Shown: piece after piece, positions 9,001 through 15,000 of the stretch
Numbering within the stretch: position 1 is the first letter of the stretch
Layout of the letters: every line of letters starts with the position of its first letter
IMG/VR virus record: IMGVR_UViG_2718218396_000003
Strand: one strand, 5' to 3'
DNA length: 64,000 nt
Origin: a virus
Taxonomy: Duplodnaviria; Heunggongvirae; Uroviricota; Caudoviricetes
Program-made: the position numbers

Positions 9001-12000
9001 AACAGAAACCTAATCGATGCGCTGATGGTTGCCGAGGCGTGCGGAGAGGAGCATTTCACGTCAATCCTGATGACCAGCAAAAACTGCCCGAGTGCCGCAA
9101 ACCTGAAGGGATATGCCGGAATGGTCGCGGATAACTATCACCGCCGTCTGGTGCTGGAAATCATGGATGAAATGCGTGAACCAATCCAAAGCGGAACCAT
9201 CGACGCATCGAGTCAGGCGATGGATGAACTTGTAAAGCGTCTTTCAGCCATCAGAAAGCCCCGTGACGAGGTTAAACCTGTACGGTTAGGGGAAATATCA
9301 CTGACTACACTGACACGCTTGACAGGCGTCTGAGGAACGGAGAAGAGTCAGATACCCTGAAGACCGGAATCGAAGAGCTTGACGCTATCACTGGAGGGAT
9401 GAACGCAGAAGACCTGGTGATTATCGCCGCTCGTCCTGGTATGGGGAAAACCGAACTGGCGCTGAAGATTGCCGAAGGTGTGGCAAGCCGCGTTATTCCT
9501 GGTTCTGACGTCCGGCGCGGGGTATTGATTTTCTCAATGGAAATGAGCGCATTGCAGATTGCAGAGCGAAGCATTGCCAACGCCGGGAGGATGTCGGTTA
9601 GCGTACTGCGAAATCCTGCATCGATGGATGACGAGGGCTGGGCACGTGTTGCTAACGGCATGAGTCAGCTTGCAGATTTGGATGTATGGGTAGTCGATGC
9701 TTCGCGGTTATCGGTCGAAGAAATACGCTCAATCGCAGAACGGCATAAGCAGGAAAATCCAAACCTGTCACTCATCATGGCGGATTATCTTGGCCTGATT
9801 GAGAAGCCGAAAGCAGACCGCAACGACCTCGCAATTGCTCACATCTCCGGAAGCCTGAAGGCGATGGCGAAAGACCTGAAAACACCGGTTATCTCCCTGA
9901 GTCAGCTTTCGCGCGATGTTGAGAAGCGACCAAACAAACGCCCGACAAACGCAGATTTGCGTGATTCAGGAAGCATTGAACAGGACGCAGACTCAATCAT
10001 CATGCTCTATCGGGAAGCGGTATATGATGAGAACAGTAGCGCCGCGCCATTTGCTGAAATCATCGTGACGAAAAACCGTTTTGGCTCGCTTGGTACAGTT
10101 TACCAGCGGTTCTGTAACGGACACTTTGTTGCATGTGACCAGGATGAAGCCAGACAGATTTGCACAGCATCAAATGCACCTGCTGCGCGTGGCAGACGAT
10201 ATGCACAAGGGGCTGACGTATGACCATCTACATCACTGAGCTAATAGCAGGGTTATCGTTACTAATGGTTCTTACTGTATATATTATTAAGTATATTCTT
10301 TATGCGAATAAAAAAACTAATTGATCACGATGAGCTTCTGTCAACATTATCATATGACTCAGAAACAGGAATATTTAAATGGCTAAAAACAAATTCAGTA
10401 GTAAGAGTAAAAGGTAGTATTGCTGGAGGTGTTAGTGGTGGTTATATATGCATTAGTATAAATAATGTTTTGTATAAGGCGCATAGACTTGCTTGGTTCT
10501 ATGTATACAAAAAATGGCCTCCTAAGTTTATTGATCATGTAAATGGGAACAGACTTGATAATAGGATTTCAAACCTAAGACTGGCAACAGAAGAGCAGAA
10601 TGCAAGAAACATTGTAGGGAATAGATTAAACACATCCGGTGCAATTGGAGTGTCTTGGTATAAGCCAACTGGCAGGTGGAAGTCTTATGTTGGTTATAAA
10701 AATAAGACAATATCGTTAGGGTATTTCGATAGCAAAGAAGATGCAGCATTCATAGCAGCACTAGCAAGAAAGAAACTATATGGAACTTATGCGAGTAAAG
10801 CACTTAATTGCGAGCATGAGCTTTTATCTCAATTTAATAATGATGAGGATAAACTTGCGGAATATCTTAAGGAAAAATATAAAAGGACTCGAAAGCGTGT
10901 TAAAAAAAGATAAAGGCCTGCTGGTAATCGCAGGCCTTTTTATTTGGGGGAGAGGGAAGTCATGAATCTGGACAAGCAAGATGCACAAACTATTAGCTCA
11001 TACATAAGGGCATCAAGACCAGATTACAAAGGTCCGGTATTCGTAGATTTATCTCGCCTTGAATAGATTTACATGTGGAAAGCAAGGTTACTTACGCATT
11101 TTGTTATTCGAACGATGACTAGCAACATTACAAAACCAATGTAACTGGAAGAGGTGAATATGAGCACACTCGCAGACCTTATTCATGCCGATATGGCTGA
11201 AGATGGAGCAAGGCGTAATAGGTACTGGAAATCATCGAGCCTTCCAGTTTGTGAAAGATTCAATCACAGGCCAAAACCAAAACGTAGCCGACGAGACAAA
11301 GTGTTGAAAAAACTCATGCAAATTAACATGGCTGGTTTTGTCAGATTCGTGAGTGAAACGACTAACGGTGATTGATATGGACGAATCAAGAAAGCAGTTT
11401 GAGGAATACGTTGCCAAAAAATTGAGATTACCATTCGAGATGATAACCGAGGCAAGAAATGGTGATAGGTACTTCGCATTTTCAAGCATGGATATTCGTC
11501 ACTCCTTAAATGATTGGTGGGCTTTATGGCAGGCATCGCGAGCAGCTATTGAACTGGATATCGACTGGCCCGAATCGAATGACGACCTTTGGAAAGATGG
11601 TGAAGAAGGTGCTTATGCGATGGGTTATGAGGATGGGCGTGACAAAACGGTAATTGCAGTAATGAAAGCCATCAGGGCCGCAGGAATCAAAGAAAAGAAT
11701 TTCGATTAAGCAAATATCACTTCAATAAATCGCTTTTAAGGCATCACAATCGCTCTGTGGTGAGGTAAGCACGTGCAAGGTATACCGATAAGCAGCGAGA
11801 ATGAAAAATGCGTCAGAATGCGTTTGAGGAGGTTTTAAGAAATGAGTACGATAGCTGAGCTTGTCAGGGCTAATTTTCGTGAAGAGTTGGTGCGTTGGTA
11901 TCGGTATCGTTCATCGTCCAGTTTGCCGCTTGATGAGTTGTATGAGCATTCACCTGCCGCACGACGCTATCCGCGTGACCGTGTTCTTCGACGGTTGTTC

Positions 12001-15000
12001 AAACTCAACAATGAGTTTCAGCGCAACAGAATTATCCGGAGTCTGGATTTTAAGTGAAGGAGTGAGCATGAGCGACCTATCATTAACCCAGCCAAAGCTA
12101 AAAGAATGTCCGTTTTGCGGCGGTAATGCTCGTCTGTGGGTTGAGGCCGGAATAAATATTGATGTGTGGGGCTATGCAGAATGTGACCTCTGTGAAGCCA
12201 GGGTGGCATGGGCACCATCAGTTGCTGCGGCTACTGAAAAATGGAACCGGAGAGCAGGAGATGAAGCAAACCTTTCTGCTTCGCAACGAAGCAATCAGAA
12301 ATAACGCCATAGACGCCATTCTCTCACTACCCATCGACGACAAGTCACCCCACGAAGTCCACGTTAAAGAACCCAAGCGCAGCAAAGCGCAGAATGACCG
12401 CATGTGGCCGATGCTGAACGATGTTTCGCGTCAGGTGCTATGGCATGGTCAACGGCTGGCGCCGGAAGACTGGAAAGACCTGTTCACTGCCCTGTGGCTT
12501 AAGACCAAAAAACTGGAGCAAAGAAGTGCGCCTGGTATCGACGGTGGCGTTGTCATGCTTGGCGTGCGTACCAGCAAAATGCGAAAGGCCAGCATGACTG
12601 AGCTTATCGAAATCATGTTCTGGTTCGGCTCAGAGCGCAACGTGCGGTGGAGTGATGACTCCCGGCGAGAGTATGAATGGTCACAACGAAAAGGGAAGGC
12701 TGCATGACTATCAAATCAAATACGCCAGCACACGACAAGGACTGCTGGCAAACGCCGCTCTGGCTTTTTGATGCGCTGGATATTGAGTTTGGATTCTGGC
12801 TGGATTCAGCTGCGAGCGACAAAAACGCTCTGTGCGCTCACTGGCTAACTGAGGCTGACGACGCGCTAAATTCTGAGTGGATAAGCCACGGTGCAATCTG
12901 GAATAACCCACCGTACAGCAATATCAGGCCGTGGGTGGAAAAAGCCGCTGAGCAGTGCATACAACAGCGACAGACGGTAGTGATGCTTGTGCCAGAGGAT
13001 ATGTCTGTCGGATGGTTCAGCAAGGCTCTGGAGAGTGTTGACGAAGTTCGCATCATCACTGATGGACGGATTAATTTTATCGAACCATCGACAGGGCTGG
13101 AGAAGAAGGGAAACAGCAAAGGCTCAATGTTGCTGATTTGGCGACCGTTCATCAGTCCTCGACGGATGTTTACTACCGTATCCAAAGCGGCATTGATGGC
13201 GATCGGGCTGGGCGTCAGGAGGGCTGCATGAGGCGACAGCGACGAAGTATCACCGACATCATCTGCGAAAACTGCAAATACCTTCCAACGAAACGCTCCA
13301 GAAATAAACGCAAGCCAATCCCAAAAGAATCTGACGTAAAAACCTTCAATTACACGGCTCACCTGTGGGATATCCGGTGGCTAAGACATCGTGCGAGGAA
13401 AACAAGGTGATTGACGTGATGATTTATTCGGGGCTATATTCCTCAAACGCCAGCAAAATCTGGCGTCGGGATTGGCGTCCTGGATAGAGACCGCGACAGA
13501 TACACGCCGCGAGCGTGTTTTTTATTGTCGTATGCACGCGCACATCTGAATTATGGTGGGCTGTGTGGGGGCGGAGAGATCCGCGCCGGTCGGTTTCCCG
13601 GTTACGCCAACCCTGCACAGTTCACCACCAGACGATTGGCGTCGTCGGTGGTGAGTTATTAAGAAACCACCAGAGGGCGTCATTATGACAACTAAAATTT
13701 CTGTTGAAACTCTCTCCCCGATCACCCATAACCAGATTCCTGTTATTACCACCGAACTTTTGGCGCAGCTTTACGGCACTGAGCCGGTGCGTATTCGCCA
13801 GAATCATCATGAGAACAAAGTACGCTTCGTTGAAGGGAAACACTTTTTCAAAGTTGTTGGTAATGACCTTAAAGAATTGCGGGTAGCTTTAAACTACTCA
13901 CAAAATTTGCGGGTTACTTTAAGTAACTCACAAAATTTGCGGGTTACTTTAAGTAACTCACAAAATTTGCAACCATCTTTAAGAGGGTTACAAATTTCCC
14001 CGAAAGCCCGCTCCCTCATCCTCTGGACAGAACGCGGCGCAGCCCGTCACGCAAAAATGCTCGAAACCGATCGGGCGTGGGAAGTGTTCGAAAAACTGGA
14101 AGACTGCTATTTCAGCCAGTGCGAGAAAAATACTGGCAAACAAGAGAAGAAGCTCAACGGGCTTTCCGCAAAAGAAACAGACAGCCTTGTATGGCTGTGG
14201 GATTATGCCAACCGCTCACAGGCATTGTTCCGTGAGTTGTATCCCGCATTAAAACTGATTCAGTCTGGCTATTCCGGCATATGCCACGACTACGGCTATG
14301 AGTTCTCGTATATCATCGGGAGGGCGAGGGGCGTTTTAATTAATCACACGCGGGATATAGATATTTATGAGCCTGACGGGCCGACGAACCTTCTGGCATG
14401 GGAAAGGCTTAAGAACAAAGAGTTGCCGCCTTCACTGCATCGCTACTGACAATTGACAACTTAACAAACCCAGCTTCGGCTGGGTTTTTTATTGCTGAAT
14501 TTTCAATGTGAGAGGACATGACAATGAATGAGCTGATAAATAGCAATGCCATCAAAATGACAAGCATTGAAATCGCTGAGTTGGTGGGAAGCCAACACGG
14601 TAATGTCAGAATATCAATAGAACGTCTGGCAAAGCGTGGGGTGATTCAACTTCCTTCAATGCAAAAAGTTGAAAATAAACAAACAATTAGCCCTAACAAA
14701 TTCACAAGCGTGTATATATTCGAAGGCGAACAAGGTAAGCGAGACAGCATTATTGTCGTCGCTCAGTTGTCGCCGGAATTCACCGCTCGCCTTGTTGACC
14801 GCTGGCGAGAACTCGAAGGGGCAACCGCGAAAATACCACAAACCTTTTCTGAGGCATTGCGCCTTGCGGCCGACCTTGAAGACCAGAAGGCTGAACTGGA
14901 GAAACAGCTTGCTCTCGCAGCACCTAAAGTTGAGTTTGCCGATCGAGTTGGCGAGGCCAGCGGAATTTTGATTGGAAACTTTGCAAAGGTTGTTGGTATT

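Follow-up and report, generated by a model that had tools for sequence, protein, structure and literature searches.

Two DUF7301 genes upstream of ninB in an Escherichia coli O157:H7 prophage were probably joined by recombination within a mosaic nin-region slot

We analyzed a stretch of 64,000 nucleotides (nt) from a virus of the class Caudoviricetes, IMG/VR record IMGVR_UViG_2718218396_000003 (hereafter the window, meaning this whole stretch), and focused on four small genes immediately upstream of ninB. Two of them encode paralogous basic proteins of the family DUF7301. Each is followed closely by a second gene, which encodes an acidic protein of 110 amino acids (aa) in one case and a Lar-family restriction-alleviation protein in the other. 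From this parallel layout, an earlier reading made before any database search (the sequence-only reading) had proposed two anti-defence cassettes, in which each basic protein serves as a regulator or chaperone of its partner. Our analysis leads to a different interpretation: the locus is likely a mosaic slot of the nin region, in which DUF7301 is a stand-alone gene whose two copies were joined by recombination.

The window is an Escherichia coli O157:H7 Shiga toxin 2 (Stx2) lambdoid prophage, and the locus lies at the left end of its nin region. Many O157:H7 chromosomes match positions 10900-12400 at 100% identity. One of these records is annotated with the gene order cI/cro/cII, O-type replication protein, DnaB-type helicase, HNH endonuclease, DUF7301, hypothetical protein, DUF7301, Lar, NinB, Dam, NinE, ant, NinG, phosphatase, Q, tRNAs and stx2. 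The full 1.5-kb arrangement is present in only 52 of 5,426 complete E. coli genomes, and parts of it occur in 2,010. Between the replication genes and ninB lies a variable set of small accessory genes. The features of the locus are as follows.

11160..11375, plus strand: DUF7301 paralogue A, 71 aa, isoelectric point (pI) 10.4; PF23975 at 108.6 bits, phrog_1785
11377..11709, plus strand: acidic protein of 110 aa, pI 4.75, Phage_phiTE_015 family (PF26207, phrog_343); phrog_343 at 1e-29, PF26207 carried by its homologues
11526..11553, plus strand: central linker of phiTE_015 genes, encoding WQASRAAIE; isolated 27-28-nt blastn matches in loci L008 and L048, and the match to phage 933W starts at 11525
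11710..11841, plus strand: 132-nt spacer common to the window and 933W; no promoter, terminator or Rfam match
11842..12057, plus strand: DUF7301 paralogue B, 71 aa, pI 10.8; PF23975 at 91.4 bits, phrog_1785; AlphaFold2 (AF2) model
12052..12072, plus strand: junction AAGTGAAGGAGTGAGCATGAG, comprising the B stop codon, the Shine-Dalgarno (SD) sequence AAGGAG and the ATG of the cargo gene; tabulated over 84 loci, with a 33-nt match of locus L048 to 12043-12075
12068..12304, plus strand: Lar-family restriction-alleviation protein, 78 aa, zinc ribbon C14/C17/C38/C41; TIGR03655, PF14354
12261..12707, plus strand: NinB/Orf recombination mediator; annotation by the NCBI Prokaryotic Genome Annotation Pipeline (PGAP) and neighborhood comparison

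Much of what the sequence-only reading described was borne out. Its four open reading frames (ORFs) stand, as do the tight spacing of the two gene pairs (1 nt and 10 nt), the acidity of the 110-aa protein, the paralogy of A and B, and the Lar assignment. Moreover, the paralogues and the 110-aa protein match only families of unknown function (DUF7301 and Phage_phiTE_015), not a family with a characterized unrelated role.

Both paralogues are full-length members of DUF7301 (PF23975; gathering cutoff 27 bits), each covering positions 1-64 of the 65-position model, and both match phrog_1785 (A, E 5e-35; B, E 2e-33). An ungapped alignment of the two proteins spans 56 residues, of which 45% are identical and 68% positives (E 2e-16). 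The corresponding DNA is 48% identical across the aligned 168 nt, and 20 of 25 conserved residues are encoded by different codons. Judging from these sequences, the split between A and B is an old one, maintained by purifying selection at the protein level, and not a recent duplication. Each copy is found nearly identical in phages that lack the other: close relatives of A (95-100%) occur in 48 IMG/VR loci, and B is 98-100% identical in phages 933W, VT2-Sakai, 1717 and 2851.

DUF7301 is a narrow phage family, so far known mainly from Escherichia prophages. A profile search of 1.84 billion representative proteins retrieved only 55 clusters (at 50% identity), and nearly all named members come from Escherichia; the same profile yielded no confirmed locus in contigs from species-representative genomes. 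Within the family, R45 is invariant, L7, S26, L28, E32, D46 and V48 are nearly so, and the consensus motif reads SSSLP..E(K/R)...RP....YRRDRVL. The AF2 model of B is an antiparallel helical hairpin with helices at 3-25, 30-35 and 44-69 and a mean predicted local distance difference test score (pLDDT) of 86.8. Because the 55 clusters share conserved motifs, A and B differ by 20 synonymous codons at conserved residues, and the hairpin is confidently predicted, DUF7301 is a genuine protein-coding gene. The model gave no informative fold match. Sequence searches against solved structures returned nothing for DUF7301, the phiTE_015 family or Lar, no NCBIfam model matched A, B or the 110-aa protein, and a literature search found no mention of DUF7301, PF23975, PF26207 or phiTE_015.

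The PGAP annotation starts A at an internal methionine, giving a protein of 60 aa. We favor the longer start at 11160, because it restores the family-wide N-terminus MST(I/L)A(E/D)L; the PGAP start is probably a miscall. One 111-aa member of the family, P0042, has a C-terminal extension ending in ...TAVGIKVEAK, like the conserved C-terminus of phiTE_015 proteins, and may be a DUF7301-phiTE_015 fusion or read-through. In phage mEp213, the gene 5' of the homologue of the 110-aa protein, mEp213_058, was considered as a DUF7301 member and rejected, as it encodes a hydrophobic membrane protein.

Evidence that the 110-aa protein belongs to PF26207 is indirect but strong. Although the local Pfam copy gave no direct match to this protein or its relatives, a precomputed PF26207 match is present in 120 of the 120 homologues listed, including the 96%-identical P0085 and P0086, and phrog_343 agrees. 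One phage record labels phrog_343 as "similar to P22 EaD". Alignments of the family reveal three conserved segments, the N-terminal MDESRKQFE, the central W..WQASRAAIE and the C-terminal IRAAGIKVKE, around two hypervariable inserts; DNA identity among alleles is limited to short conserved islands. The protein may be an accessory factor built on a conserved helical scaffold that carries the two inserts; its AF2 model has a pLDDT of 73.5. Diversifying selection on an interaction surface could explain the insert pattern, but recombination hot spots in a dispensable gene would do so equally well. Our data speak neither for nor against the anti-defence role that had been proposed for this protein. 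The defence models of PADLOC-DB, which holds no counter-defence models, matched none of A, B, the 110-aa protein and Lar.

The Lar protein passes the cutoffs of both relevant models (TIGR03655 anti_R_Lar, 61.4 bits versus 39.6; PF14354, 37.8 bits versus 28.6). Its four-cysteine zinc ribbon, CPFC at 14-17 and CDLC at 38-41, aligns with the cysteines of RalR/Lar from the Rac prophage, to which the protein is 36% identical. However, it falls short of the RalR equivalog model NF007260 (28.7 bits versus a cutoff of 113). By analogy with Rac Lar, family membership suggests that it most likely alleviates type I restriction by itself. In general terms, lar has been described as a conserved accessory gene of Stx phages (PMC3430580). 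The last 44 nt of lar overlap ninB, and this overlap sets the C-terminal tail of Lar. In contrast to the intact gene of the window, Lar is frameshifted and cut to 56 aa in 933W-type phages (locus L002, which is 933W, at 2727-2897, and five IMG/VR loci). In 933W, the coding sequence annotated as "Lar-like" (15997-16356) has its start within the DUF7301 ORF but in a different frame. The DUF7301 region is labeled "Lar-like restriction alleviation protein" in several RefSeq phage records.

How the two DUF7301 copies came to stand side by side can be read from the phages that resemble each half of the locus. By blastn, window positions 10914-11714 are 98% identical to locus L037, an A-type phage in which NinB follows straight after the phiTE_015 gene. 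Positions 11525-12800 match 933W at 98% identity, and in that phage the order is ren, phiTE_015, spacer, B, Lar and NinB. In mEp213, the segment equivalent to 11377-11717 is joined directly to that from 12260 onward. The gene for the 110-aa protein is itself a chimera: its N-terminal module is of the L037/mEp213 type, and its 3' end (the last ~40-120 nt) follows 933W. In a four-way alignment, the pattern of single-nucleotide polymorphisms locates the crossover to roughly 11590-11670. Because the parental types have the 3' module of phiTE_015 in common, a single exchange by homologous recombination within it would suffice. One parent would have been a phage with the order orf60, DUF7301A, phiTE_015 and NinB (orf60 is a small gene discussed below), and the other a 933W-type phage with the order phiTE_015, spacer, DUF7301B, Lar and NinB. 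Relaxed homologous recombination between lambdoid phages and prophages is known to create such mosaics (PMC3945230). The parallel layout would therefore reflect one crossover inside phiTE_015, and not paired cassettes of regulator and effector.

Gene neighborhoods were compared in 80 IMG/VR loci retrieved with the DUF7301 family profile, 80 retrieved with B and 79 new loci retrieved with the phiTE_015 profile, supplemented by contigs for six distant DUF7301 members and several annotated phages. The proteins encoded downstream of 92 DUF7301 genes fall into 55 distinct sequences, among which those of the phiTE_015 type are 30-100% identical to that of the window. At least 10 different kinds of downstream neighbor were found, and the co-occurrence expected in both directions for a dedicated cassette was absent; the commonest neighbor, immediately or a few genes downstream, is NinB.

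Where B genes are nearly identical (99-100%, 80 loci), the next gene is intact Lar in 68, Lar in the frameshifted 933W state in five, a Lar-NinB fusion in one, an unrelated 60-aa non-Lar protein in three and a 61-aa membrane protein in one; two have none. Behind B-like alleles with 54-59% identity stand a 68-aa phrog_18758 protein, a 98-aa membrane protein (phrog_5603), or NinB with an 11-nt overlap. The distant members of the family are followed by NinB (L089 and L093-L096, with a 160-nt gap between DUF7301 and NinB in L093-L095), an HNH endonuclease (L090), a 175-aa unknown protein (L091) or an 89-aa unknown protein (L086). As in 933W, phiTE_015 in L096 lies upstream of DUF7301, not downstream.

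In the reverse direction, a DUF7301 gene is directly 5' of only 17 of 73 phiTE_015 genes; the other 56 (77%) follow small membrane proteins, a 53-aa protein or ren. In loci L028 and L059, a Lar-family gene stands directly behind phiTE_015 in the absence of a B-type gene, and the experimentally studied lar/ralR of Rac is located after recT. Because its downstream genes vary, and because phiTE_015 and Lar are both found without it, DUF7301 has no fixed partner. The co-occurrence comparison that the sequence-only reading had recommended thus speaks against the regulator or chaperone role that it had suggested for the small basic proteins. Part of the parallel-cassette idea survives, in that DUF7301 heads a variable accessory slot.

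The interval between DUF7301 and ninB is a slot in which unrelated cargo genes are readily exchanged. Only 1 nt separates the stop codon of A from the start codon of the 110-aa protein (TGAtATG), and the stop codon of B, which is overlapped by the SD sequence AAGGAG, is 10 nt from the ATG of Lar. Such tight packing is general among the nin genes here. B-type DUF7301 genes have the sequence AAGTGAAGGAGTGAG(C/T)ATGAG at their 3' ends, ahead of the cargo, and so do many phiTE_015 genes. It is read as ...K-stop, SD and ATG in B, and as ...KVKE-stop and ATG in phiTE_015, so that the conserved C-terminus KVKE of phiTE_015 doubles as the ribosome-binding site for the gene behind it. This junction is followed by at least 11 different genes, comprising the following cargo.

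Three diverged forms of Lar
Proteins of 68, 98, 61, 60, 54, 50 and roughly 45 aa
A DUF3850/ASCH protein
NinB directly

The C-terminal sequence ...ASQRSNQK of many cargo proteins comes from reading the 5' end of ninB in a different frame, and in most of the lineages sampled the slot is bounded on its right by ninB. In locus L048, a natural fusion ORF of 152 aa (3218-3676) joins phiTE_015 to a Lar-family protein through the translated junction (...SEGVSMSELKPCPFCG...), probably as the result of a frameshift or deletion at the junction, and it shows that Lar is able to sit directly behind phiTE_015. A regulatory scan of 10940-12800 detected no promoter-like excess and no terminator, and an Rfam scan of 10.9-12.3 kb matched no family.

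Several points weigh against the proposed mosaic slot with a stand-alone DUF7301 gene. The samples consist mostly of closely related E. coli prophages, and the counts are not independent events. All 72 of 72 A-type DUF7301 genes are followed by a phiTE_015-type ORF at +1/-1, and this one-way linkage could reflect function rather than shared descent. Other elements of the picture are extrapolated. By analogy with lambda, all four genes most likely lie on the pR transcript, which N antitermination would carry past the terminator at 10912-10939. DUF7301 would act independently of the gene downstream, conceivably by binding nucleic acid or an acidic host or phage protein, a role that we suggest with low confidence from its charge and modeled fold only; any activity of the phiTE_015 protein is likewise conjectured from charge, fold and position. 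We nevertheless regard this interpretation as likely, and compare it below with the alternatives.

A more purposeful version of the slot deserves some consideration. DUF7301, phiTE_015 and the AAGTGAAGGAGTGAG(C/T)ATGAG junction might together form a dedicated docking site upstream of ninB for the exchange of counter-defence cargo, of which Lar would be one example. In that case, phiTE_015, with its three conserved helical segments and two hypervariable inserts, would be a diversifying scaffold for anti-defence or host interaction, and its adjacency to A-type genes would be a real functional partnership. We consider this rather unlikely.

The cassette model of the sequence-only reading, in which each DUF7301 protein is the dedicated regulator or chaperone of the next gene, seems more doubtful still. 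It accounts for the spacings of 1 nt and 10 nt, for A and the 110-aa protein being oppositely charged (pI 10.4 and 4.75, respectively), for the unbroken succession of phiTE_015-type ORFs after the 72 A-type genes, and for the presence of Lar, whether intact, frameshifted or fused, after 74 of the 80 near-identical B genes. However, the nin genes here are all tightly packed, and the prophages in which B and Lar are linked are clonally related and nearly identical. Even the same B allele is sometimes followed by non-Lar genes, and other DUF7301 members are followed by NinB or unrelated genes. Moreover, 77% of phiTE_015 genes lack an upstream DUF7301, and Lar occurs behind phiTE_015 or recT in loci with no DUF7301 at all.

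A related idea is that DUF7301 is a generic leader, whose translation or protein product controls any cargo downstream. A location at the 5' border of the slot, whose cargo is interchangeable, would fit, as would the overlap of the cargo SD sequence with the B stop codon and the 1 nt between the A stop codon and the next ATG. Yet the same junction and cargo are found behind phiTE_015 where DUF7301 is not adjacent, the 160-nt gap to NinB in L093-L095 is at odds with coupling, and conserved residues such as R45 point to a function of the protein and not to coupling only. We give this idea little credence.

It is very improbable that B and Lar form a toxin-antitoxin-like pair with Lar as a RalR-like DNase toxin. 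Rac RalR has been reported as the DNase toxin of a type I toxin-antitoxin system, but its antitoxin is a small RNA (sRNA), not a protein (PMC4041452). The two small-protein genes do resemble a type II operon, and the window Lar shares 36% identity with RalR; however, its score against the RalR equivalog model is far below the cutoff (28.7 versus 113 bits), B is found without Lar and Lar without B in place of the conserved pairing of type II systems, and Lar is frameshifted beside an intact B in 933W-type phages. Finally, tandem duplication of an ancestral two-gene unit within the phage lineage, which the same-strand paralogues 680 bp apart, each with a following gene, might suggest, is hardly tenable: A and B DNA is only 48% identical, the partners are unrelated (110-aa protein versus Lar, E 6.3), and breakpoint mapping contradicts it, since the two halves have their 98% matches in different phage types, each without the other half.

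The following neighboring features provide the context of the locus.

10302..10913, plus strand: HNH-AP2 homing-type endonuclease gene; PF13392 plus AP2, PADLOC HEase; context only
10912..10939, plus strand: terminator-like hairpin; terminator scan, within a conserved ~100-bp segment after the replication genes in many lambdoid phages
10962..11144, plus strand: orf60 (phrog_21123) pseudogene; GAG->TAG nonsense codon at 11064-11066
12704..13231, plus strand: phage Dam-type N6-adenine methyltransferase gene, directly 3' of ninB; PF05869 at 216 bits, PGAP annotation; context only

Elsewhere, orf60 is an intact 60-aa ORF that ends 14 nt 5' of an A-type DUF7301 gene (translations of L008, L011, L013 and L037) and matches phrog_21123 at 1.4e-40. 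The first member of the usual block orf60-DUF7301A-phiTE_015 has thus been lost in the window. The hairpin presumably occupies the position equivalent to lambda tR2, as the gene order of lambda suggests. The HNH-AP2 gene is an insertion (10252-10910) into conserved DNA that runs from the helicase gene to the terminator. Positions 10200-10251 and 10910-10960, on either side of it, adjoin each other directly in 933W, mEp213, Bas106, Dewey and many IMG/VR phages. Locus L001, from a sister O157 genome, carries an IS66-family element between its helicase and HNH genes.

The DnaB-type replicative helicase gene of the window is divided into two ORFs (8848-9333 and 9399-10223) that together span 1376 nt, versus 1377 nt (458 aa) for the intact gene of L001. 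This split is a 1-nt frameshift; the prophage may be replication-defective, or the frameshift may be a sequencing error. Three identical ALIL pseudoknots, a frameshift signal of IS3-family insertion sequences (IS), lie at 6970-7086 (plus strand), 17051-17167 (minus strand) and 38836-38952 (plus strand), and mark a single IS element that is present three times in the window. The first copy (ORFs 6689-7015 and 7012-7902) is located between cII and the O-type replication gene, where it breaks the early right operon upstream of the locus. Rfam matches to the Hfq-binding RNA isrK and the C4 antisense RNA at 13447-13632, just 5' of the antirepressor gene ant (13685-14449), make up a P1/P7-type ant control module within the nin region. 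The sRNA STnc100 has a strong match (158 bits) at 20276-20487, downstream of the tRNA cluster at 18625-18865.

The locus conforms to what is seen in other lambdoid nin regions. The same position and order (replication genes, terminator, small ORFs, NinB, Dam and NinE...Q) recur in lambda (ren-ninB), 933W, VT2-Sakai, 1717 and 2851. The B-Lar-NinB segment is 98% identical in 933W, and the whole arrangement is 100% identical in the Stx2 phages 1717 and 2851. The interval from ren to ninB in lambda is not known to carry DUF7301, phiTE_015 or Lar genes. The window lineage has two diverged DUF7301 alleles, an arrangement shared over the full 1.5 kb by only the 52 E. coli genomes mentioned above. Breakpoints in lambdoid mosaics lie at or near gene borders, as they do in the window (PMC3945230, PMC9836094).

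Among the individual genes, the window Lar resembles Rac Lar/RalR as a small zinc ribbon (CxxC...CxxC), but differs in being no RalR equivalog and in following DUF7301-B in a nin region, whereas ralR follows recT. The 110-aa protein shares the MDESRKQFE, WQASRAAIE and IRAAGIK... segments of the phiTE_015 family. For DUF7301, our results add that a small family, modeled as a basic helical hairpin, is usually encoded just upstream of ninB. The slot is also reminiscent of the moron and anti-defence hotspots of temperate phages, which likewise offer a fixed position to many unrelated small genes, one of them here being of the Lar family; in the window, a Dam-type methyltransferase is encoded two genes away. 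Unlike separately transcribed morons, the slot lies in an early operon in which we found no internal promoter or terminator, and unlike anti-defence hotspots, it has Lar as its sole cargo gene with an anti-defence annotation.

The locus thus exemplifies the ordinary mosaicism of lambdoid phages, here among families of unknown function that are already catalogued, and its own interest is modest. It illustrates how such mosaicism can mimic a designed architecture, as one crossover in a modular gene yielded two look-alike cassettes. For annotation, the start of DUF7301-A was probably miscalled by PGAP, the "Lar-like" coding sequence of 933W is a frame artifact of a frameshifted Lar, and DUF7301 should not be called Lar-like, as it is in several phage records. 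The most intriguing by-product is the phiTE_015 family, with its conserved ends and hypervariable inserts. This family and the ninB slot, with its at least 11 small genes behind a shared junction, would be reasonable candidates for screens for counter-defence or host-takeover functions in Shiga-toxin phages.

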